DNA of 64,000 nt from Minisyncoccia bacterium (GTDB lineage: Bacteria > Patescibacteriota > Minisyncoccia > Phycocordibacterales > UBA9973): positions 89,768 through 153,767 of the forward strand of contig JBAQFO010000012.1 in NCBI GenBank assembly GCA_049287305.1. Reading direction: 5' to 3'. Numbering within the stretch: position 1 is the first letter of the stretch; every line of letters starts with the position of its first letter. The notes below the pieces were generated by a model. The model was not told the DNA's origin. It did not search any database and saw nothing but the letters and a program-made list of their open reading frames with translations. This document shows positions 2,299 to 47,091 of the stretch, in pieces. A program made the translations under genes and the position numbers.

Positions 2299-5200
2299 AT
2301 GAGTGAAGAAACAAAAAAAATCATAGAAAAATCTGACGCAGCCTTCCGCGAAGAGAAGGTTTTGGAATTTTGGAAAGATAATAAAATTTTCAACAAGACG
2401 CTGGAAGCAAGTGCCGGCAAGAAAGAATTTATTTTTTACGACGGTCCGCCTACTGCTAACGGCATGCCGGGGATTCACCACCTGATTCCGCAATCTTTTA
2501 AGGATGCTATTCCGCGATATAAAACAATGCGCGAGTTCCATGTCCGCAGAAAGGGGGGCTGGGATACTCACGGCCTTCCCGTTGAACTCTTGGTGGAAAA
2601 AGAACTGGGATTGAAATCAAAAAAAGAAATTGAGAGTTACGGTATTGCCGCCTTCAACCAAAAATGCAAAGAAAGTGTCTGGAAGCACGTGGATGTCTGG
2701 TATAAATACCGCGACCGAGTCGGATACTGGGTGGACAAGGATAATCCATACGTTACTTACCACAACGAATTCATTGAGTCGCTGTGGAGTGTGGTGAAAA
2801 AAATAAACGAACGCGGACTACTTTATAAAGATTATAAAGTAGTGCCATGGTGTCCGAGGTGCGGGACGGCGCTGTCTTCACATGAGCTTGCCCAAGGATA
2901 TGAGGACGTAAAAGATTTATCGGTGACGGCAAAATTCAAAGTTGTCGGACAAAACAATACTTATATCCTGGCATGGACGACGACTCCATGGACGCTTCCA
3001 GGGAATGTGGCACTCGCTGTTGGAGAAAATATTGATTATGTAAAGGTGAAAGTAGGAGCCGAGCTTTATATTTTAGCCAAAGCCCGACTTTCTATAATAA
3101 CCGAATCTTACGAGATAGTGGAAGAGATAAAAGGCGGAGGGCTGATTGGCTTGGAATATGAACCGCTGTTCCCATATTTCAAAAATACGATTTCCGAAAA
3201 TGAAAAACCAAAACTGGAAAAAGCCTTCCGGGTGCATAAAGCAAACTTTGTAACCACGGAAGACGGCACGGGGGTAGTGCATACCGCCGTAATGTATGGA
3301 CAGGACGACTTTGTGCTCGGGAACGAAGTCGGCTTGCCGAAACATCATATGGTAGGGCTGGATGGAAAATTCCTTCCCGGGACTGGCATATTTGAAAGGC
3401 GCTTTGTAAAAGACGAGGAAGTTGCCGTAGATATAATCAAAGATTTGGCTGGACGAGGGCTTCTTTTTAAAAAAGAAAAATACGAACACTCGTATCCGCA
3501 TTGCTGGCGATGCAAAACTCCGCTCATATACTACGCGAGAGATTCTTGGTATATCAAAATGTCTGACCCGAAAATAAAAGCCGAACTCATCAGCCAAAAC
3601 AAAGAAATAAATTGGGAGCCGGCGCATACCCGCGACGGACGTTTCGGCGAATGGCTTCGGGAGATAAAAGATTGGGCAATATCACGTGAGCGATATTGGG
3701 GAACACCGCTTCCGGTGTGGTCTTGCGAAACTTGCAAGAAAACCGAAGTGCTCGGGAGCATAGAAGATATAAAATCTAAAGCAAAAAAATCCGGAAATAA
3801 ATATTTGGTAATGCGGCACGGCGGAACTAATGCCAACAAGAAAGGACTTGTAAGCTATAAAAATGAGGCAAGCGACCACCTGACGGAAGAAGGGAAAAGG
3901 CAAGTCACGGCAAGCGCGGAGAAACTAAGTAGCCAAAAAATAGATTTAATTGTGGCGTCTCCCTTTGTTCGCACTAAAGAAACAGCATTAATAGTTAAAG
4001 ACAAATTTGGCCTCGGCGAAGACCAGGTTGTTTTTGACTCGCGCTTGGCGGAATTTGACCCTGGGGATTTTGACGGCAAAGAATGGAAAGATTATCACAG
4101 ATATATTGCTAGCTCAGGGTCTGGATGGTTCAATCAAACAATCCCGGGCGGAGAATCCCTCAAGGATGTGGGGGAGAGGACGGCGTCCCTCTTATATGAG
4201 ATTGAAAATAAGTTCAGTGGAAAAAATATTCTCATTGTTACCCATGGCGGACCGGCATGGCTTTTGTTCGTTAATTCTGGGTTGTTTATACCAGGAGGCG
4301 AGGCTTATAGGATTCCAAACGGAGAATCTTTCGTAAAAGAATTTCAACAGCTAAGGAATGCCGAGGTTAGAGAGTTACCGTTCGCGCCGTTGCCCCATAA
4401 TGAAAAATACGAATTGGATTTGCACAAACCTTATATTGATGAAGTAAAAATGGTTTGTTCCTGCGGAGGAGAACTTATCCGCACCAAAGAAGTCATGGAC
4501 GTGTGGTTTGACTCTGGTGCAATGCCTTTTGCTCAGGACCACTATCCGTTTGAAAATAAAAAATGGGTGGAAGGGCCCGGGTTCCCTGCGGATTTTATCG
4601 CGGAGGCCATAGACCAGACGCGCGGATGGTTCTATACGCTACATGCCGTCGGAATTTTGATGGGGCGAGGCAAGGCATATAAAAACGTGATTTGCTTAGG
4701 TCATTTACTAGACGCCAAAGGAAAGAAAATGTCCAAGTCTCTCGGCAACGTAGTGAATCCGTGGGAAGTAATGGATAAATATGGAGTGGACACATTACGC
4801 CTGTGGATGTATTCCATAAACCAGCCAGGGGAGTCAAAGAATTTTGACGAGAAAACGGTGGCGCTTCTCTCTCAGCAAGTTTTCGGACTGCTTTACAATG
4901 TGCTGGCCTTTTACGAACTTTACCGAGACAAAAGCTACGAAGATAACTCCAGACCAAGCTCTAAAAATATTTTGGACAAATGGATTCTCACCCGTCTTTT
5001 TGAATTAAGGAATGATGTAACAGCCAACATGGATAGTTATAAATTGTTGGAACCTGTGCGAGGAATGAGAGATTTCATCGGAGACCTTTCTACTTGGTAT
5101 TTAAGGCGGTCCCGAGAAAGAATAAAGGAAGGCGACTCGGAAGCGAAGGCCACTTTATATTTTGTGTTGAAGAGTCTAGCCAAGCTGATGGCTCCGTTCG

Positions 5201-20374: not shown

Positions 20375-22591
20375 TTAAATTACGGTGTCTCCTTCGTCTG
20401 TTCGCTCTATTTTCTCAAGCACCTCTCTCGGCTTGGCGCCGTCGCCCGGTCCTATGACTCCTCGTTCTTCCAGCTTATCCATTAGTCGGGCAGCGCGAGC
20501 GTAACCAAGTTTCAATTTTCTTTGCAGGTAGGAGGTGGAAGCTTTTCCCGCTTCCATGACGCATGCCCTGGCTTCTTCATACATTTCGTCATCATCTTCC
20601 ATGCCGTCTTCTTCCAGGGAGGCTTCAAATATACTCTTATCAGCCGATATGGACCCTACCGATAGAGAAATTTCTTCGGAGATTTCGTCTTTATAAGCGT
20701 CGGCAAGATATTTTACAACTTTCTTTACTTCCGCTTCGGAGATGAAGGCGCTCTGCAGTCTTTCGGGCTGAGCTTCCCCAGAAGAGTAAAGCATGTCTCC
20801 CGCTCCGAGGAGCTTCTCGGCTCCGCCCGCATCCAGGATTGTTCGGGAATCTATTTGGGAAGAAACTTTAAGCGCTACACGAGCAGGAATGTTTGCCTTG
20901 ATAAGACCTGTAATAACGTTGACTTCGGGTCTCTGGGTAGAAAGTATTAAATGTATTCCCACTGCGCGGGACATTTGAGCTAAGCGAACAATTGCTGATT
21001 CTAATTCTCGGGGGTAAGTGCTCATTATGTCGGCGAGCTCGTCTATTATAATGACTATGTAAGGCATTCGGTCAGCGTTTATTTCCTCTTCCACTCCTTC
21101 GCTGTTGGTCTTCAGCTTCTTCGGCGACTTATTGAAGACGTTGTTGTGGTAAGACTCAATGTCCCGCACGGATTCCGCTTCCAATATGTCATATCGACGG
21201 TCCATTTCTTTTGCCGCCCATTTGAGGGCAAGGATTGTTTTCTTCGCTTCGGTAATAACAGGGGTGAGAAGGTGGGGGATGTTGTTATATAGAGTAAGCT
21301 CCACCCGTTTTGGGTCTATGAGGATAAGCTTGAGGTCATCGGGGCCGTTCCTATATAGAAGGGAAGTAATCATGGAATGGATAGTCACGGATTTCCCGGA
21401 GCCTGTTGTTCCTGCCACCAAGGCATGAGGCATTTTTGCCAAGTTCCCAAATACTGCCTTGCCGGAAATAGCGCGTCCCAGAGCCGTCGTCAGAGGCTTT
21501 GAAGAATTTACGAATTTATCGTCGGCTAGGAGAGTCGCAAGCCCGACGATGGACTTGGACTTGTTCGGAATTTCAATACCCACGAGAGATTTCCCCGGAA
21601 TAGGTGCTTCTATTCTAATAGGATGCGCTGCTAGAGAAAGGGCGAGGTCATTCTGAAGTCCCACGATGCGTGAGAGTTTCACTCCTTCGGCAGGCTTGAG
21701 GGCGTATCTGGTTACGGTAGGTCCGACGGTGATTTCATCCATTTCTACTTCAATGCCGAAGTTTGCGAGAGTGCGTTTTATTATATTCGCGTTTGCCTTG
21801 ATGTCTCCCGTGTTTGGTTTGCCCTTATCTTCTTCCAAGAGCGACAGTGGGGGAGGGATGTAGGTAGACACGAGTCCGCTTCTCATCTTCCTGATTGGCA
21901 TTTCTTCTTCTTCCGGCTTTTCTTCTTTCTTCTTGCCTACCCCGAGAGCGCTTTTGATTTTCGCTCCGGCGCTTTCTTTCGGTTCTTCATCTTCTTCCAC
22001 CGGTATAGCTTTCAGAACTTCTTTTGCTTCGTCTTCGTTAAGAGACACTTCCTCCAACTTTTCTTTTTTAGAGAACAACGCCATAATTTTGCGACCGATA
22101 GGGGCGAGGCTGAACTTGGCATCAAACATTATTGAAATTGAGATTATCAGAATAGCGAAAAGGAACACCAGGCTGGCGTATTTTTCAAAAAGCGCCAAGA
22201 ACGGCTTTGCCAATATTTCTCCGAAAAATCCTCCAGCGTGAGTGGCGGATGTTATGTCTATGATGCCCAAGCCTGAGAGCAGAAACATTGTTCCGCTTAC
22301 CATACGAGTCCAGCCGATATCAGGAGCTTCGGACTTCATAAAAGAGCTTGCGAGCAAGAAAAAAAGTATCGGCACCAAATAGTAACCGATGCCGAGAAGG
22401 TAGAAGAGTTTTTCATATACGAATGCTCCCGCCACTCCCGCCGCGCCGAACGCTGACATTAAAAAGAAGAAGGCGAAGACAAGGCATATCACCGCGATGA
22501 TTCCATGTTTGGTCTGAGTTTTTAATCCGTTTCCCGACTTGCTCTCATTCTTGTTATTTTTCCTATCAGTCCTTTTTTTATTTTGTTTCAT
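20375..22591 (-). CDS. ftsK: DNA translocase FtsK/SpoIIIE
   Basis: N-terminal TM region, Walker A GTTGSGKSV and a C-terminal winged-helix gamma domain. Confidence 0.9.
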   Translation of the reverse strand: MKQNKKRTDRKNNKNESKSGNGLKTQTKHGIIAVICLVFAFFFLMSAFGAAGVAGAFVYEKLFYLLGIGYYLVPILFFLLASSFMKSEAPDIGWTRMVSGTMFLLSGLGIIDITSATHAGGFFGEILAKPFLALFEKYASLVFLFAILIISISIMFDAKFSLAPIGRKIMALFSKKEKLEEVSLNEDEAKEVLKAIPVEEDEEPKESAGAKIKSALGVGKKKEEKPEEEEMPIRKMRSGLVSTYIPPPLSLLEEDKGKPNTGDIKANANIIKRTLANFGIEVEMDEITVGPTVTRYALKPAEGVKLSRIVGLQNDLALSLAAHPIRIEAPIPGKSLVGIEIPNKSKSIVGLATLLADDKFVNSSKPLTTALGRAISGKAVFGNLAKMPHALVAGTTGSGKSVTIHSMITSLLYRNGPDDLKLILIDPKRVELTLYNNIPHLLTPVITEAKKTILALKWAAKEMDRRYDILEAESVRDIESYHNNVFNKSPKKLKTNSEGVEEEINADRMPYIVIIIDELADIMSTYPRELESAIVRLAQMSRAVGIHLILSTQRPEVNVITGLIKANIPARVALKVSSQIDSRTILDAGGAEKLLGAGDMLYSSGEAQPERLQSAFISEAEVKKVVKYLADAYKDEISEEISLSVGSISADKSIFEASLEEDGMEDDDEMYEEARACVMEAGKASTSYLQRKLKLGYARAARLMDKLEERGVIGPGDGAKPREVLEKIERTDEGDTVI

Positions 22592-29456: not shown

Positions 29457-29734
29457 TCCCGTTAGAGATCACTTATGTTTTATTACACATATACTTTAAA
29501 AAGTAAGAAAGATGGCAAAATTTATACAGGATATACGCAAGACCTACGGAAGCGCCCGAGTGAGCATAATAAAGGTTTATCTACATATACTAAAGGACGA
29601 GGCCCATTTATTTTGATATACTACGAAGGGTGCTTATTAAAAGATAAAGCTAGGTCGAGAGAATTATATTTAAAATCAGGAATGGGCAAGCGTTATCTAA
29701 AAAATAGATTAGGCGCTTCCTACCTCTAACGGGA
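29457..29734. repeat. perfect 11-bp inverted repeats TCCCGTTAGAG (29457-29467) and CTCTAACGGGA (29724-29734) bracketing GIY-YIG copy 1
   Basis: Read from the sequence. The right repeat overlaps the GIY-YIG stop and the gmd ATG. Confidence 0.7.
29475..29729 (+). CDS. small stand-alone GIY-YIG nuclease-superfamily protein (YhbQ/UPF0213-like), copy 1
   Basis: [28 protein letters not shown]...ELYLK, with GIY-YIG-like YTGYT and a conserved Arg and Glu. About 85 aa. Paralogous to copies 2 and 3. Confidence 0.75.
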
Positions 29735-32577: not shown

Positions 32578-32604
32578 ATCCCGTAGTAGATTTTTAATTA
32601 GATT

Positions 32605-32877
32605 ATGTTCTACACATATATATTACAAAGTCAGAAAAATAAAGAACTATATATTGGTTATACTTCAGATTTAAAAAGAAGAGTCGAAGAACATAATCAA
32701 GGGTTAAATTTTTCTACAAAAAGATATATTCCATGGAATATCATATACTACGAAGCGTGTATAGAAGAAAGTGATGCTAAGCGCAGAGAGAAATATCTGA
32801 AAACAACACAAGGGAATAGATTAATAAAGAGAAGGATAAAAGATTATATTTATAAGTTGAAAAATTTAACAAATTAA
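32605..32877 (+). CDS. small stand-alone GIY-YIG nuclease-superfamily protein, copy 2
   Basis: MFYTYILQSQKNKELYIGYTSDLKRRVEEHN. It is bracketed by the imperfect inverted repeat TCCCGTAGTAG (32579-32589) and CACTACAGG (32883-32891). Confidence 0.75.
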   Translation: MFYTYILQSQKNKELYIGYTSDLKRRVEEHNQGLNFSTKRYIPWNIIYYEACIEESDAKRREKYLKTTQGNRLIKRRIKDYIYKLKNLTN

Positions 32878-32891
32878 AAATTCACTACAGG

Positions 32892-34232
32892 ATGATAAAT
32901 ATAATCAATAAAATTAAAAGTTTAACACTCGAGCAGATAAACAAAAACCTAGTTTTTTTGGCTATTATCGCCTTAATTTACCGAAAAGGTAATTTTTACA
33001 ATACTTTTGTTCCAAAGCCATTTGAAATAATTCTCGTACTGATTATCATTCTTACATTTGTGCATTTACTAATCAATAAGAAATTTAAAGCTTTTTTCTC
33101 TTCAATTGATAAAAAAATTTGGATAGCATTGTCGTGCCTCCTGGTATCTGTTTTTGTGGGCTGGGCTGTAGCTGTATTTTTTAAGAATGTGCCGATAAAT
33201 TTCAATGTTATTTTAGAGTTTGGGAATTTTGTAATTTCTTTGGTGATATTTGTATTGGTTTTATTTTACACAAAAAATGATAAAATATTTGCCCAAAAAT
33301 ATTTATACGCATTACTTTTGCCGGCTGTATATACGATTTTTGTGTTATTCACCGAAGGGGCTAATTACTTTAACTTGGAAAACAACGGCACATTTCTTGG
33401 GCTTACAATCAATCCGAATATAATTTCTAAAATATTGCTTATTCCTGCGTTATTCTTTATAACGCATTCTTTGTTTAAACTTCAAAACAGGTGGCTGAGA
33501 ATTGGATATATTGCTATTTCTTGCGCTATGGTTGCTTTATTGTTTTGGGTTGCATCCAGGGGAGGATTGGTTTCTTTGGCGATTTCAATGATGTTCGTGT
33601 GGCTTGTTTTTTCTTTACATCATTTTAATTGGAAAAAACTATTTTATAGTGGTGGACTTCTCTTCATTATATTTTTAATTGGATTTCTTATAACTCCGCA
33701 AACTGGGAAGCAGAGGGTTATCCTTCGAGCTTTATACCCAAGTGGATCTGATTATTCTAGTTATGTCGAAGTTATAAATAAACCGGTTGACGATATTGTA
33801 TCTAAATTTATTACTGATAAGTCAGATAAGCATGTTTTTATTTATGCTAATGGAGAAAATCGTTTTAAAATTTGGCCATTTTATTTAAAGTACATATTGA
33901 TGAACCCACTTGGTATAGGGCCAAATACTCACTTGAGCTTTAGCTTAAAGGATAATGTTGGAGAATATATAAATTCAGGTCCACATAATACTTTCCTACA
34001 AATTTGGCTATGGGGAGGACTGCTAGGGATACTGAGTTTCTTATATATCTTTATCAATGCATTTAAAAACCTAAGATTACAATTAAAATCAGAATTTAAT
34101 CCTACTGCCTTGGCATTGCTTGGAGTTCTATTTGCTGTTAGTATTTCTGTCATGTTTGATGACAGCTTATCATTTTTTTGGTTTTTTATAATTTTAGCTT
34201 TGACATTGAGATATGAAAATACCAGTAGTTAG
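32892..34232 (+). CDS. O-antigen polymerase/ligase-like (Wzy family) membrane protein
   Basis: About 11 TM helices; the WVASRGGLVSLAISMMF pattern is typical of the Wzy_C region. Confidence 0.45.
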   Translation: MINIINKIKSLTLEQINKNLVFLAIIALIYRKGNFYNTFVPKPFEIILVLIIILTFVHLLINKKFKAFFSSIDKKIWIALSCLLVSVFVGWAVAVFFKNVPINFNVILEFGNFVISLVIFVLVLFYTKNDKIFAQKYLYALLLPAVYTIFVLFTEGANYFNLENNGTFLGLTINPNIISKILLIPALFFITHSLFKLQNRWLRIGYIAISCAMVALLFWVASRGGLVSLAISMMFVWLVFSLHHFNWKKLFYSGGLLFIIFLIGFLITPQTGKQRVILRALYPSGSDYSSYVEVINKPVDDIVSKFITDKSDKHVFIYANGENRFKIWPFYLKYILMNPLGIGPNTHLSFSLKDNVGEYINSGPHNTFLQIWLWGGLLGILSFLYIFINAFKNLRLQLKSEFNPTALALLGVLFAVSISVMFDDSLSFFWFFIILALTLRYENTSS

Positions 34233-44355: not shown

Positions 44356-45360
44356 TTACTTTTCGTGTTTATTGCAATCTAAGTATTTTTTTGAAATGAT
44401 TTTCTGCCACCAAGGCTTGTTTTCTTCATACCATTTAATGGTCTTTTGTATTCCTTCTTCAAAAGATACAGAAGGGCTCCATCCTAATTCTCGGGTAATT
44501 TTTGAATGATCCATGGCATAACGCATATCGTGCCCCCTACGATCTTCTACGAAAGTTTGTAAACTTTTCGGTTTATTTAGCAGGTTCAATATGGTATCAG
44601 TAATTTCAAGTCCATTTTTCTCTGAATCTCCCCCGATGCAATACGTCTCTCCTATTTTGCCTTTGTGGATTATTAAATCAAGAGCTTCACAATGATCTAT
44701 GACATACAAATAGTCTCGCACAGCTTTACCTTTACCATAAACAGGCAAAGGTTTGTTTTCAAAAGCATTAGTTATAAAAAGTGGGATTATTTTTTCCGGA
44801 AACTGGAACGGGCCATAGTTATTTGTACAGTTTGAAATTGTGGCAGGGAAATTGTATGTTTCAATGAAAGCCCTGACTAGGTGATCTGAGCCAGCCTTTG
44901 ATGCGGAGTAAGGGGACCTAGGAGAATACGGAGTATTCTCCTTAAATTTTTCTCCCGGTTTGTCGAGCGACAAGGTGCCGAAAACTTCGTCGGTGGATAC
45001 GTGGTGAAATCTTTTTAAATTAAACTTTCTTGCAGTTTCTAACAACACCAGTGTGCCTTTGACATTGGTTTCGACAAAATCTTCTGGGTTCTCAATTGAC
45101 CTATCCACGTGGGACTCGGCGGCAAAATGAACCACCAAATCACATCCCGTCATTGCTTGCATAACTATTTTTCTATCGCAAATGTCGCCGTGAATAAATG
45201 TATAATTTGGGTTATTCTCTATGCTTTTTAAATTGTCTAAATTTCCAGCATAGGTTAGTTTGTCTAGGTTTACTACCTCGTAGGTAGGGTATTTATTCAT
45301 CATATAGATGATAAAGTTTGAACCTATGAATCCAGCTCCACCCGTGACTAGAATTTTCAT
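44356..45360 (-). CDS. rfbB: dTDP-glucose 4,6-dehydratase
   Basis: MKILVTGGAGFIGSNF and YSASK. The start ATG at 45358-45360 overlaps the stop of GIY-YIG copy 3. The longer track ORF to 45465 is that upstream gene read in another frame. Confidence 0.9.
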   Translation of the reverse strand: MKILVTGGAGFIGSNFIIYMMNKYPTYEVVNLDKLTYAGNLDNLKSIENNPNYTFIHGDICDRKIVMQAMTGCDLVVHFAAESHVDRSIENPEDFVETNVKGTLVLLETARKFNLKRFHHVSTDEVFGTLSLDKPGEKFKENTPYSPRSPYSASKAGSDHLVRAFIETYNFPATISNCTNNYGPFQFPEKIIPLFITNAFENKPLPVYGKGKAVRDYLYVIDHCEALDLIIHKGKIGETYCIGGDSEKNGLEITDTILNLLNKPKSLQTFVEDRRGHDMRYAMDHSKITRELGWSPSVSFEEGIQKTIKWYEENKPWWQKIISKKYLDCNKHEK

Positions 45361-45629
45361 CACGTATGAAATAGGAATCGTTTTAAACGAGAATTTAAAT
45401 ATCTTCTCCCCATTCCTGTTTTTAAATATAATTCTCTCGACCGAGCATCGTCTGCGTTTAGACATGCCTCATAGTACATAATCTTATATGGTCCACGTCC
45501 TTTTGTATATGTTGACTTACCTTCATTGTGCTGTTTAAAACGCTTCCGTAATTCACTCGTATATCCAATATACCACTTATTATTCTTTTGACTTTGTAAA
45601 ACGTAAGTATAGAACATATTAGATTTCAT
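45360..45629 (-). CDS. small stand-alone GIY-YIG nuclease-superfamily protein, copy 3 (probable start at MFYTY, 45617)
   Basis: MFYTYVLQSQKNNKWYIGYTSELRKRFKQHN; STYTKGRGP and ARSRELYLK are shared with copy 1. The direct repeat CGTGACTA occurs at 45343-45350 and 45631-45638. Confidence 0.75.
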   Translation of the reverse strand: MKSNMFYTYVLQSQKNNKWYIGYTSELRKRFKQHNEGKSTYTKGRGPYKIMYYEACLNADDARSRELYLKTGMGRRYLNSRLKRFLFHT

Positions 45630-45635
45630 ACGTGA

Positions 45636-46181
45636 CTAAAAGTTAATATCGCAATCTTTTAGAAAGGGAGCGTCTTTGTCTCTATCTATTAATAGGGGAT
45701 TCATGTCTCCCCAATCTATGCCAATATCTGGATCGTCAAAACGGATACTTCTTTCGGATTGCTTATCGTAATCATTGTCAACCTTGTATATGAATTCGGT
45801 ATTGTCTACCAAAGTTAAAAAACCATGAGCAAAACCACGAGGTATATAAAGCTGTTTTTTATTTTCTTCGGTTAATTCTATAGAATACCACTCTTTATAT
45901 GTGGGGGAATTTTTTCTTAAATCCACGGCTACATCTAGGACGGCTCCTCGCGTACAGCTGACTAGTTTGGCTTGAGAGAAAGGAGCATTCTGTAAATGAA
46001 GCCCCCTGAGGGTTCCCTTCATTTTACTAAAAGAACGATTGTCTTGGATAAAGGCAGAACTTATTCCAGCTTCCGCTAGCCTCTTCTGATTGTAAGATTC
46101 AAAAAACCACCCACGGGTGTCTTCAAATATATCCGGTTCAATCACTAAAACATCTTTTATTTTTGTTGGAGCAATTTTCAT
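45636..46181 (-). CDS. rfbC: dTDP-4-dehydrorhamnose 3,5-epimerase
   Basis: RmlC motifs (VLVIEPDIFEDTRGWFFE, HGFL). Confidence 0.9.
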   Translation of the reverse strand: MKIAPTKIKDVLVIEPDIFEDTRGWFFESYNQKRLAEAGISSAFIQDNRSFSKMKGTLRGLHLQNAPFSQAKLVSCTRGAVLDVAVDLRKNSPTYKEWYSIELTEENKKQLYIPRGFAHGFLTLVDNTEFIYKVDNDYDKQSERSIRFDDPDIGIDWGDMNPLLIDRDKDAPFLKDCDINF

Positions 46182-46191
46182 GAAATTTAAT

Positions 46192-47091
46192 TTAAAATAT
46201 CTTTTTAGGATTATTTTCTTGAGCTACTCTCATAAGGTGTTGTCCGTATTGTGATTTTTTATATTGCTTGGCTACTTTAAGTAAATCATTTCTGGTAATC
46301 CAACCGTTTCTGAAAGCTATTTCTTCTAGGGCAGCGATTTTAGTATTTTGCCTTTCCTCTATTATTTTGACAAAATCATTGGCATCCATCAGGGAACTAA
46401 TCGTGCCAGTATCCAGCCAAGCAAATCCACGACCCAGCAATTCAACATCTAAATCTCCAGCATTTAAGTATAGCTGGTTAATATCTGTTATCTCCAATTC
46501 TCCGCGGCCGCTTGGTTTGATTTTTTTAGCAAAATTTATAACTCTATTATCATAAAAATAAAGCCCAGTCACGGCGTAGTTGGACTTGGGATTTTTCGGC
46601 TTCTCTTCTATGGAAGAAACTTTACCATTTTTATCAAATCCGACGACACCGAATCTCTCTGGATCATTTACATAATATCCGAAAACAGTTGCTCGATTTT
46701 TATTCTCTACGGCTTCTTTTAAGGTTTTCACTAAGCCATTTCCATAAAAAATATTATCACCTAGTATCATGGCGACGTTACTCTTGCCAATAAATTTTTC
46801 TCCGATGATAAAGGCTTGCGCTAGGCCGTCGGGGGAAGGCTGTTCGGCGTAGGATAGTTTTAATCCAAAACTTTCACCGGTGCCTAGAAGTTTCTTGAAA
46901 TTTGGCAAGTCGCTCGGAGTTGAAATAATTAAAATTTCTCTAATACCAGCGAGCATCAGAATAGAAAGTGGGTAGAAAATCATCGGCTTATCGTATACAG
47001 GCAAAAGCTGTTTACTCATGGCTATCGTCAATGGATATAGCCTGGCGCCACTCCCGCCTGCTAATATTATGCCTTTTGTGTTGTTTTTCAT
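46192..47091 (-). CDS. rfbA: glucose-1-phosphate thymidylyltransferase
   Basis: [17 protein letters not shown]. Confidence 0.9.

Follow-up and report, generated by a model that had tools for sequence, protein, structure and literature searches.

The DNA analysed here (the window) is a stretch of 64,000 nucleotides (nt) from a Minisyncoccia bacterium (contig JBAQFO010000012.1, positions 89,768 to 153,767). On its minus strand it carries, in this order, rmlA, rmlC, an open reading frame (ORF) for a GIY-YIG nuclease and rmlB. As recognized in an earlier note made from the sequence alone, the stop codon of the nuclease ORF and the start codon of rmlB overlap and have one A in common (TGATG). The same note had described an 8-bp direct repeat on both sides of the ORF and taken it for the target-site duplication of an insertion between rmlC and rmlB. 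We found that the ORF is bracketed in addition by a perfect 13-nt inverted repeat, which does not appear in the earlier note. The unit delimited by this repeat is likely a copy of a small selfish mobile cassette whose only gene encodes an 85-amino-acid (aa) single-domain GIY-YIG nuclease, and which is widespread in Patescibacteria and found also in other phyla. Two further copies are located in the window (copies 1 and 2), such that the unit between rmlC and rmlB is referred to as copy 3. The coordinates of all features are collected in Table 1.

The two strands of the inverted repeat, which we call P1, form the ends of the cassette. The last base of the 3' arm ATTTCATACGTGA is at the same time the A of the rmlB ATG. 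Copies 1 and 2 are bracketed likewise by arms whose sequences differ from those of copy 3. When compared to shuffled sequences, the terminal inverted repeat had a p-value of 0.0005 for copy 3, 0.0005 for copy 1 and 0.0095 for copy 2. The terminal inverted repeats are 13–14 bp long and have the conserved tips TCNCG...CGNGA. A second helix, P2, pairs a segment inside the ORF with the sequence next to the 3' arm. Both P1 and P2 were contained in the RNA minimum free energy (MFE) structure and in the RNA centroid of the window copy (RNA fold z-score -1.8) as well as in the MFE structure obtained with DNA parameters. According to these computed folds the whole unit would, as a folded single strand, adopt the shape of a 'panhandle' of ~28 bp with the gene in the loop. 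Within the 64-kb window the arm sequences occurred at the cassettes only, without dispersed copies. At the gathering threshold, Rfam provided no match in the window or at the cassettes of five scanned loci; tRNA genes elsewhere in two of these loci accounted for both hits obtained. All three cassettes of the window belong to one glycan/O-antigen-like biosynthesis cluster, where they are situated at the starts of genes, namely before gmd (copy 1), before an O-antigen-ligase-like gene (copy 2) and before rmlB (copy 3).

The three encoded proteins comprise 84–90 aa and match PF01541 with E-values of 3.7e-15, 2e-15 and 3.7e-18, where this single Pfam domain spans nearly the whole protein. Residues Y3/Y5, Y16/G18/Y19, R26, H30, N31 and E62 are invariant among them, and Y5, Y16, R26, H30 and E62 are found at the expected catalytic positions of GIY-YIG enzymes. 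For copy 3 an 89-aa version with an upstream in-frame ATG had been listed. The second ATG is the likely true start, since the protein then begins with MFYTY as the other copies do and since this agrees with the NCBI gene call. A dN/dS ratio of 0.11 between copy 3 and a relative (L001, see below) indicates that the ORF is under purifying selection. The cassette, the sole ORF of which is the GIY-YIG domain, encodes no recognised transposase (DDE, HUH, serine or tyrosine recombinase). The best match among solved structures was 1ZG2 (E = 1.8e-10), and YazA of B. subtilis matched at 43% identity (E = 1e-14). The NCBIfam model for group I intron endonucleases scored 22.9 bits at a cutoff of 56.

Table 1. 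Positions of the cassettes, their parts and the neighbouring genes in the window, and of selected features at related loci (L numbers).
Feature	Position	Strand	Remarks
Mobile cassette, copy 3 (276 bp)	45360..45635	minus	5' TCACGT to 3' ACGTGA; bounded by homology with L001; absent from L082-L089
P1 5' strand (5' terminal inverted-repeat arm) TCACGTATGAAAT	45623..45635	minus	perfect 13-nt complement of 45360-45372
P1 3' strand (3' terminal inverted-repeat arm) ATTTCATACGTGA	45360..45372	minus	codes for final (F)HT and stop
P2 5' strand GGAAGCGTTTTAAAC	45533..45547	minus	ORF nt 70-84, codons R-K-R-F-K; 14/15 paired with 45374-45388
P2 3' strand GTTTAAAACGATTCC	45374..45388	minus	ends 1 nt before P1 3' arm
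GIY-YIG nuclease ORF, 85 aa	45360..45617	minus	MFYTYVLQ...FLFHT*; PF01541, E = 3.7e-15
GIY-YIG ORF, 89-aa version as listed	45360-45629	minus	in-frame upstream ATG at 45629
Cassette copy 1	29457..29734	plus	arms TCCCGTTAGAG/CTCTAACGGGA; P2 29548-29556/29712-29720; terminal A = A of gmd ATG
GIY-YIG gene of copy 1	29475-29729	plus	protein 62% identical to copy 3
Cassette copy 2	32578..32893	plus	arms ATCCCGTAGTAGATTTTTAATT/AATTAAAAATTCACTACAGGAT; abuts ATG of next gene (32892)
GIY-YIG gene of copy 2	32605-32877	plus	protein 51% identical to copy 3
rmlA	46192-47091	minus	
rmlC	45636-46181	minus	upstream of GIY-YIG ORF
rmlC stop TAG	45636..45638	minus	flush against cassette; apparently compacted left junction
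rmlB start codon ATG	45358..45360	minus	A = last cassette base = last base of GIY-YIG TGA (45362..45360)
CGTGACTA, right-hand copy	45631..45638	plus	rmlC stop + first 5 nt of cassette
CGTGACTA, left-hand copy	45343..45350	plus	native rmlB codons 4-6, 9 nt from cassette end
Empty junction (closest flanks)	L089		...TTTTAG tgcgtaaaatattttt ATGAAAATTCTAGTCACAGG; TAG + 16-nt spacer + ATG
Empty junction	L083/84		TAA + 21 nt + ATGAAAATTTTAGTCACAGG
Empty junction	L085/86		TAA + 9 nt + ATGAAAATTTTAGTTACCGG
Empty junction	L087/88		TAA + cat + ATGAAAATATTGGTAACCGG
ORF-less arm hairpins	L056:4949-4976; L058:1921-1949 and ~2955-2990; L036:101-145; L050:3249-3270		

Relatives were collected from a scan of one genome per species, which yielded hundreds of matches, of which the best 80 loci were kept. 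They belong mostly to metagenome-assembled genomes (MAGs) of Patescibacteria and in some cases to Omnitrophota, Desulfobacterota, Clostridia and others. The extent of the unit becomes visible from a comparison with L001, in which the ORF is 85.5% identical to that of copy 3: homology begins at TCACGT and ends at ACGTGATG, while the flanks are unrelated. L001 is located between gmd and fcl, which are adjacent to each other in the window. Proteins 95% identical to that of copy 3 are encoded between rmlC and rmlB in at least eight contigs (L091-L098) and between gmd and fcl in L099-L101, and a protein of 87% identity is encoded after rplL in L102/L103. In all these contigs (L091-L103) the units measure 275–276 bp. 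The junction types rmlC|rmlB and gmd|fcl are found repeatedly in other genomes. In one MAG, two loci with otherwise unrelated flanks (L008, L009) share ~304 nt at 97% identity; this stretch begins a few nt outside the 5' arm and extends ~12 nt beyond the stop codon. One of the sites is the start of a gene that, by its N-terminal residues, resembles murG, and the other is the start of a further gene without annotation. A pattern scan of metagenomes for further TCACGT-type insertions provided only two contigs, one of which was already known, and no relatives were found in the viral contigs of IMG/VR.

To look at the junction in absence of the cassette we used seven contigs with wzx-rmlA-rmlC-rmlB synteny and an RmlB protein 84–87% identical to that of the window (Table 1). 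Here rmlC and rmlB are separated by 3–23 nt and no GIY-YIG gene is present between them. These cassette-free junctions identify the GIY-YIG gene as an insertion, in agreement with the earlier note. The age of the insertion can be judged from synonymous divergence (dS). Between the window and L092/L093 the flanking genes had reached saturation of their synonymous sites: dS was 1.70 for rmlA, 1.31 for rmlC and 2.2–2.8 for rmlB (77–82% nucleotide identity), compared to 0.23 for the cassette ORF (94.5% identity). Between copy 3 and the copies at gmd|fcl (L099-L101) dS was 0.29. The cassette dS is 5–10 times below that of the flanking genes; the divergence of the hosts is much older than the cassette. 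Overall, these comparisons show the unit to be an insertion that has moved, arm to arm and recently, between loci and genomes. The window unit is intact and was mobile in recent times; it belongs to a class of miniature GIY-YIG cassettes that has hardly been described so far.

An exact complementary pair of at least 8 nt was found to bracket 57 of the 80 related ORFs. The arms have the family consensus (A)TCCCGTTAGAGAT...ATCTCTAACGGGA(T), and they exist in variants in which both sides changed together: CCCGTACGAAAT/ATTTCGTACGGG, CCTGTTAGAGATA/TATCTCTAACAGG, CCCGTTAATGATA/TATCATTAACGGG, CCCTGTTAAATA/TATTTAACAGGG, TCCCGTTCCAAATT/AATTTGGAACGGGA and the window type TCACGTATGAAAT/ATTTCATACGTGA. In an alignment of 33 distinct arm pairs 97.7% of the P1 cells were Watson-Crick paired. 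As a control, sliding one partner by 1–3 columns reduced the pairing to ~44%. Double-sided changes occurred at 11 of the 13 pairs of P1 (66 cells), a level that was reached by none of 500 shuffles. Beyond pairing alone, the arm sequence CCCGTTAGAGAT is conserved across phyla. The core sites of integron attC-like elements (GTTRRRY/RYYYAAC) were matched in the arms only in part and without consistency.

The internal helix P2 is likewise a property of the family. Typically, ORF nt ~70–84 (GGAARCGCTTTAATC, encoding R-K-R-F-N) pair with GATTAAAGCGTTTCC, a 15-nt segment that ends 1 nt before the 3' arm. P2 was significant and covarying in 43 of 49 cassettes, and RNAalifold applied to 46 full-length cassettes independently recovered P1 and the core of P2 and nothing else. 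A natural perturbation is provided by a 1-nt frameshift that converts the C-terminus from RLKRFLSLTG* into RLGASYL*, with the stop codon inside the 3' arm (CTCTAAcggg), and that leaves the nucleotides of P2 and P1 in place. It is carried among others by L017, L022, L033, L039-L043 and by copy 1 of the window (29712-29734). In the frameshifted copies the 5' partner of P2 is GGAAGCGCC, such that codon 27 changes from Phe to Pro and P2 stays paired; the same is found in copy 1. Retention of P2 across frameshifted tails indicates a constraint on the nucleic acid that is strong enough to shape the protein.

In a few genomes the arms occur in ORF-less compact hairpins, in which two arms are joined by a loop of 6–30 nt (Table 1). 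They include the arm-to-arm junction hairpin ATCTCTAACGGGGTGAACCCCGTTAGAGAT. By their sequence these hairpins look like the solo hairpins (SRM/NTS) that belong to the Ssn system, which is described below. Two side groups were noticed as well. Four loci (L038, L056, L068, L074) have CCCCG...CGGGG tips and longer arms (TTCACCCCG.../...CGGGGTAAA); in this subgroup the TAA of the nuclease lies before the next ATG or overlaps it (TAAATG), and a duplication containing an ATG was not seen. Six loci (L060, L065, L067, L070, L071, L073; at ~position 3000) encode a 78-aa GIY-YIG subfamily without CCCGTTAGAG-type arms, which has GC-rich palindromes on its flanks and adjacent tRNA genes.

The target of the insertions was analysed on 49 cassettes that were anchored on their NCCCG...CGGGN tips. 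An exact 4-nt duplication flush with the cassette ends was present in 13 of them, while 2.8 were obtained on average, and never more than 9, when left and right flanks were permuted among the loci 10,000 times (p < 1e-4). The duplicated sequences were TGAA (six times), TGAG (three times), TGAC, TGGG, TGGA and CTAA (L043). Within the TCACGT subtype a perfect TGGA/TGGA duplication is seen in L102/L103 and TGA in L091-L098, while L099-L101 exhibit TGGA vs TGAA. Judged from these flanks, related copies show a flush duplication of 3–4 bp, and the reconstructed target would be A|TGRR, i.e. the start codon of the downstream gene. For 24 of the 49 cassettes the 3' arm ends on the A of an ATG with which an ORF of at least 80 codons begins. 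The downstream genes include some that, as far as their N-terminal residues tell, look like rmlC, topA, ruvC, ruvX and rpiB. The nuclease stop overlaps the downstream ATG as ATGA in 14 cassettes and in TGATG-type manner in three, the window copy included, and it lies 4 nt before the ATG in ten. An overlap or a gap of at most 6 nt was found for 36 of the 38 cassettes with a detected downstream ATG. The earlier note had spoken of a translational fusion to rmlB. What holds is an overlapping stop and start, in the sense of translational coupling, with two separate proteins as products. Rebuilding of the ATG from the terminal A of the element and the duplicated TG accounts for the TGATG better than a fusion. 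We also considered a 'translational relay', in which the duplicated ATG on the left side opens a mini-ORF that feeds the nuclease start. It was rejected as a general rule: a left ATG is present in only 21 of the 49 cassettes, and its outcomes are mixed, being either in-frame fusions or mini-ORFs whose ends range from -8 to +38 nt relative to the nuclease start.

In bacterial genomes, and above all in the reduced ones of Patescibacteria, small stand-alone GIY-YIG proteins rank with the commonest 'hypothetical nucleases'. To our knowledge, Ssn is the only such group with an assigned activity. SsnA is a 94-aa GIY-YIG protein that binds hairpins as single-stranded DNA (ssDNA) only and cleaves the strand at a short distance (a few nt) 5' to the stem, as described in the part of the work of Chenal et al. 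(Nat Commun 2025, PMC11893778) considered here. It tolerates a stem split into two strands as well as an extended loop, the layout NTS-ssnA-NTS was likened to an insertion sequence by its authors, and in Neisseria the SsnA/NTS system was proposed to modulate DNA recombination or uptake (same part of PMC11893778). Ssn/SRM is the closest known system to the cassettes, next to which they are placed by the size of the protein, its single domain, the arrangement of its catalytic residues and its association with repeats. Both have a single-domain GIY-YIG protein of ~90 aa (Y6/Y17/E64 in SsnA, Y5/Y16/E62 in the cassette), and in both, inverted-repeat DNA whose 5' half is rich in C (NTS ATTCCCGCG, cassette ATCCCGTTAG) encloses the gene and protein and repeat variants co-vary. 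In contrast to the compact hairpins on each side of ssnA, the half-sites of the cassette are split around the gene, which thus constitutes the loop, and an extra helix (P2) reaches into the ORF. The cassette repeats are furthermore not dispersed in the 64-kb window, with few ORF-less hairpins in other genomes. Finally, the cassettes exhibit discrete mobility, target-site duplications and start-codon targeting, none of which we found reported in the considered part of PMC11893778.

Among other known systems, the UPF0213/YazA-YhbQ proteins (PDB 1ZG2, 1YWL; relatives of SLX1) have the same size, a single domain and the best sequence matches. B. subtilis yazA differs from the cassettes in being situated between trmNF and rsmI with overlapping ends and without a bracketing inverted repeat, and we know of no mobility of this gene. 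A tblastn search of a plasmid collection for SsnA-type sequence returned only yazA-like genes of Firmicutes. The IS200/IS605 and REP/RAYT systems resemble the cassettes as very small elements whose ends are read as folded ssDNA and which have ORF-less hairpin derivatives. They employ HUH-Y1 transposases with covalent intermediates, have a subterminal hairpin per end and generate no target-site duplication, in contrast to the single end-to-end panhandle, the duplication and the GIY-YIG hydrolase of the cassette. Both systems are discussed in the Ssn paper (PMC11893778, part considered here). GIY-YIG genes have been listed among the horizontally transferred genes in one study of Patescibacteria. 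No account of GIY-YIG cassettes that combine terminal repeats, duplications and insertion at start codons was found in our literature search.

According to the mechanism that we propose, the cassette would insert at an (A)TGRR start codon under flush duplication of 3–4 bp, whereby the ATG would be rebuilt from the terminal A plus TG. A 4-bp duplication points to a staggered break of the target plus repair. Due to the overlap of stop and ATG the downstream gene could be translated by coupling, such that the operon would tolerate the insertion. In analogy to Ssn, the nuclease would recognise its own paired termini, probably as folded ssDNA, and would initiate mobility by a cut at the stem base; the gene itself would correspond to the loop of an Ssn-type hairpin. 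Recognition of the own termini is suggested by the conservation of the arm sequence across phyla, by arm variants that track protein variants and by the coincidence of the mobility boundaries with the arms. The window copy would later have lost the left duplicate together with the spacer, leaving the rmlC stop flush with the arm.

Taken as such, the locus and its relatives present a GIY-YIG gene as a discrete, recently mobile unit with exact ends and a conserved two-helix fold that constrains the coding sequence. A harmless colonisation of compact operons would be accounted for by insertion into a start codon that is rebuilt in the process. The predicted substrate of the nuclease is its own paired termini. 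The locus also bears on the question whether Ssn-type hairpin repeats derive from mobile elements. The cassettes may also serve as a vehicle for, or a marker of, the exchange of gene clusters in uncultivated bacteria.

Several points weigh against a selfish mobile cassette with the described mechanism. A flush duplication is absent at the window copy itself (TTAG vs TGAA), no target-site duplication is present at L001, and only about a quarter of the cassettes have kept an exact duplication. Nuclease, excision and integration activities of the family members are putative. GIY-YIG enzymes hydrolyse DNA; we know of no strand transfer by them, so that the joining step would lack a known enzyme. 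P1 and P2, and particularly P2, could act in RNA, and homing by recombination, instead of transposition, could be the cause of the recurrent occupation of rmlC|rmlB and gmd|fcl. Concerning the kinship to Ssn, the nearest annotated and solved relatives are the UPF0213/YazA proteins. Assignment to Ssn is based on a single-domain protein of <150 aa, a match to cd10448 or homology to SsnA of N. meningitidis with E < 1e-10 and an SRM within 500 bp on both sides (PMC11893778, part considered here). The SRM motif, HGTCWYN(0-2)YYVSBRHN(0-5)WNVSBRGN(0-2)RNCYNB, occurred neither in the 64-kb window nor at any of 82 related-locus ORFs, while the canonical NTS was detected as a control.

The proposed mechanism can be extended. 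The cassettes (~276 bp, 85-aa protein) might be the smallest known autonomous DNA transposons: the nuclease would read the P1 + P2 panhandle in ssDNA and excise or nick it, host repair or ligation would reinsert the cassette at (A)TGRR with rebuilding of the ATG, and Ssn/SRM would represent ORF-less or domesticated descendants. We regard this extension as possible but doubtful.

Alternatively, the inverted repeats could act mainly in the mRNA, where the stem would join the upstream stop and the downstream start or gate the translation of the nuclease, making the cassettes expression or insulation devices. Such a role is unlikely, although P1 and P2 are part of the RNA MFE structure and centroid, the operon transcript includes both P2 strands as well as the 3' strand of P1, and the stop/start overlaps point to translational coupling. 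For the mismatches we counted G·T against A·C. P2 had a slight, non-significant excess of G·U over A·C (10 vs 4), as it would favour an RNA role. For P1, however, the numbers were balanced (6 vs 5) and G·U was found in only 4 of 429 cells. The near absence of G·U and the G·T/A·C symmetry of P1 fit better to pairing or end identity at the DNA level than to an RNA stem; as a discriminator between RNA and DNA level, the strand asymmetry is not decisive. An mRNA role is further disfavoured by the conservation of the arm sequence itself across phyla, by arms that form the exact boundaries of the mobile unit, by an RNA fold z-score of only -1.8 and by translating ribosomes that would melt P2 and P1 continuously.

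It is improbable that the unit is a free-standing GIY-YIG homing endonuclease gene, similar to the seg genes of phage T4, which spreads by cutting cassette-free alleles followed by recombinational repair. Like the seg and I-TevI-family genes it is a selfish GIY-YIG gene that was inserted between conserved genes and is tightly coupled to its neighbour, and one junction is polymorphic for its presence or absence in related genomes. The occurrence of nearly identical cassettes at one junction in hosts with ~20% divergence of their rml genes, the conserved 3' end of rmlC and 5' end of rmlB as possible homology arms, and the weak NCBIfam group I intron endonuclease match, far under its cutoff, would also agree with homing. 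Homing enzymes, however, possess a DNA-binding domain and about 200–250 aa, act at homologous sites only and have neither terminal inverted repeats nor target-site duplications. The 85 aa of the cassette protein comprise the catalytic domain only, without a DNA-binding domain. Homing neither predicts nor needs terminal inverted repeats and flush duplications, and the same cassette type is found at unrelated loci (rmlB, fcl, the gene after rplL, murG, topA, ruvC and others).

Similarly little probability is assigned to a domesticated and by now immobile host function, in which nuclease and hairpins would modulate the recombination or uptake of glycan-cluster DNA. It would be in line with the position of all three window copies in one glycan biosynthesis cluster, with the purifying selection on the ORF and with the precedent of Ssn (PMC11893778, part considered here). 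Against immobility stand the low cassette dS compared to the flanking genes, the 97% identical copies at different loci in one MAG and the existence of empty sites and of an apparent decayed remnant (L082, see below). Dispersed arm copies, moreover, are missing elsewhere in the window.

Still less probable is a non-autonomous element resembling a miniature inverted-repeat transposable element (MITE), with the GIY-YIG gene as passenger and a DDE transposase that reads the 13–14-bp ends in trans and makes the 4-bp duplications. Terminal inverted repeats together with a 3–4-bp flush target-site duplication are the classic signature of DDE insertion sequences, and ORF-less arm-loop-arm miniatures do exist. 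The smallest classical insertion sequence measures about 0.7 kb, whereas the 276-bp cassette lacks a DDE transposase and has an 85-aa nuclease domain as its only ORF. A passenger would hardly be always of the same GIY-YIG family, be under purifying selection and vary together with the arms, nor would it be tied by P2 into the terminal structure. A transposase with matching ends was not seen in the window or at the loci in a search that was not exhaustive.

There remains the 8-bp repeat at the borders of copy 3. Both copies of CGTGACTA are present as described in the earlier note. On the gene strand the repeat reads TAGTCACG; its upstream copy is the rmlC stop TAG followed by TCACG, and its downstream copy is part of the rmlB codons 4–6 (C-TAG-TCA-CG, Leu-Val-Thr). 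An exact direct repeat of at least 8 nt between the two flanks was obtained in 3.5% of local shuffles, which, as a post-hoc observation in a 64-kb window, is suggestive but weak. Since the L001 unit begins at TCACGT, five of the eight nt of the rmlC-side copy are element sequence, and TCACG is common to L001 and L091-L103 at other sites. The rmlB-side copy is found 9 nt from the element end, with the native rmlB codons 1–3 in between. The earlier note had suggested inspecting relatives with directly adjacent rmlC and rmlB for a single repeat. In the cassette-free relatives with their gap of 3–23 nt, TAGTCAC(A/T) is located inside rmlB, again 9 nt into the gene. As seven of the eight bases are thus present without cassette, the rmlB-side copy is native coding sequence. 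The comparison corresponds to the refutation test that the earlier note had itself put forward.

The sister insertions L091-L098 reveal how the window junction may have arisen. They read ...AACTTTTAA ttat ATGA|TCACGT...ACGTGA|TGAAAATATTAGTCAC(G/A)GG, where the left flank is the duplicated rmlB start, (A)TGA. The sister cassettes encode the same protein in all eight contigs, with an ORF 94.5% identical to that of copy 3 (measured for L092/L093). Their rmlB contains TAGTCAC(G/A), and TAGTCACG is absent at the left junction. With ATGA in place of TAG before the arm of the sisters, the window junction TTTTAG|TCACGT would be a compacted derivative that lost the spacer and the duplicated ATGA, whereby TAG+TCACG came to match the Leu-Val-Thr codons by accident. 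At copies 1 and 2 no flanking direct repeat of >5 nt was found. Despite a true 8-mer on both sides, a local chance of ~3.5% and an insertion that did occur, we give practically no credence to a duplication of an 8-bp target, which is refuted by unit boundaries, empty sites and sister insertions. The repeat is real and, as judged from the compared junctions, coincidental, a probable product of secondary compaction at the left junction. Short flanking repeats should hence not be taken for target-site duplications without comparison of empty and sister sites.

In the whole window CGTGACTA is found three times compared to 0.66 expected occurrences, and at least three were reached in 2 of 100 shuffles. 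The third copy is positioned at 21382-21389 on the minus strand and has no link to any cassette. A similarity between the spacer of the empty junction L089 and the 5' end of the cassette was too weak to use. In one close relative (L082:2478-2503) the spacer between rmlC and rmlB reads TAA tca CGAA|TCACGTATGAAAT aac ATGAAG, i.e. it contains a solo 5' arm followed by rmlB. From its sequence this spacer looks like a decayed cassette from which the ORF and the 3' arm have been deleted.

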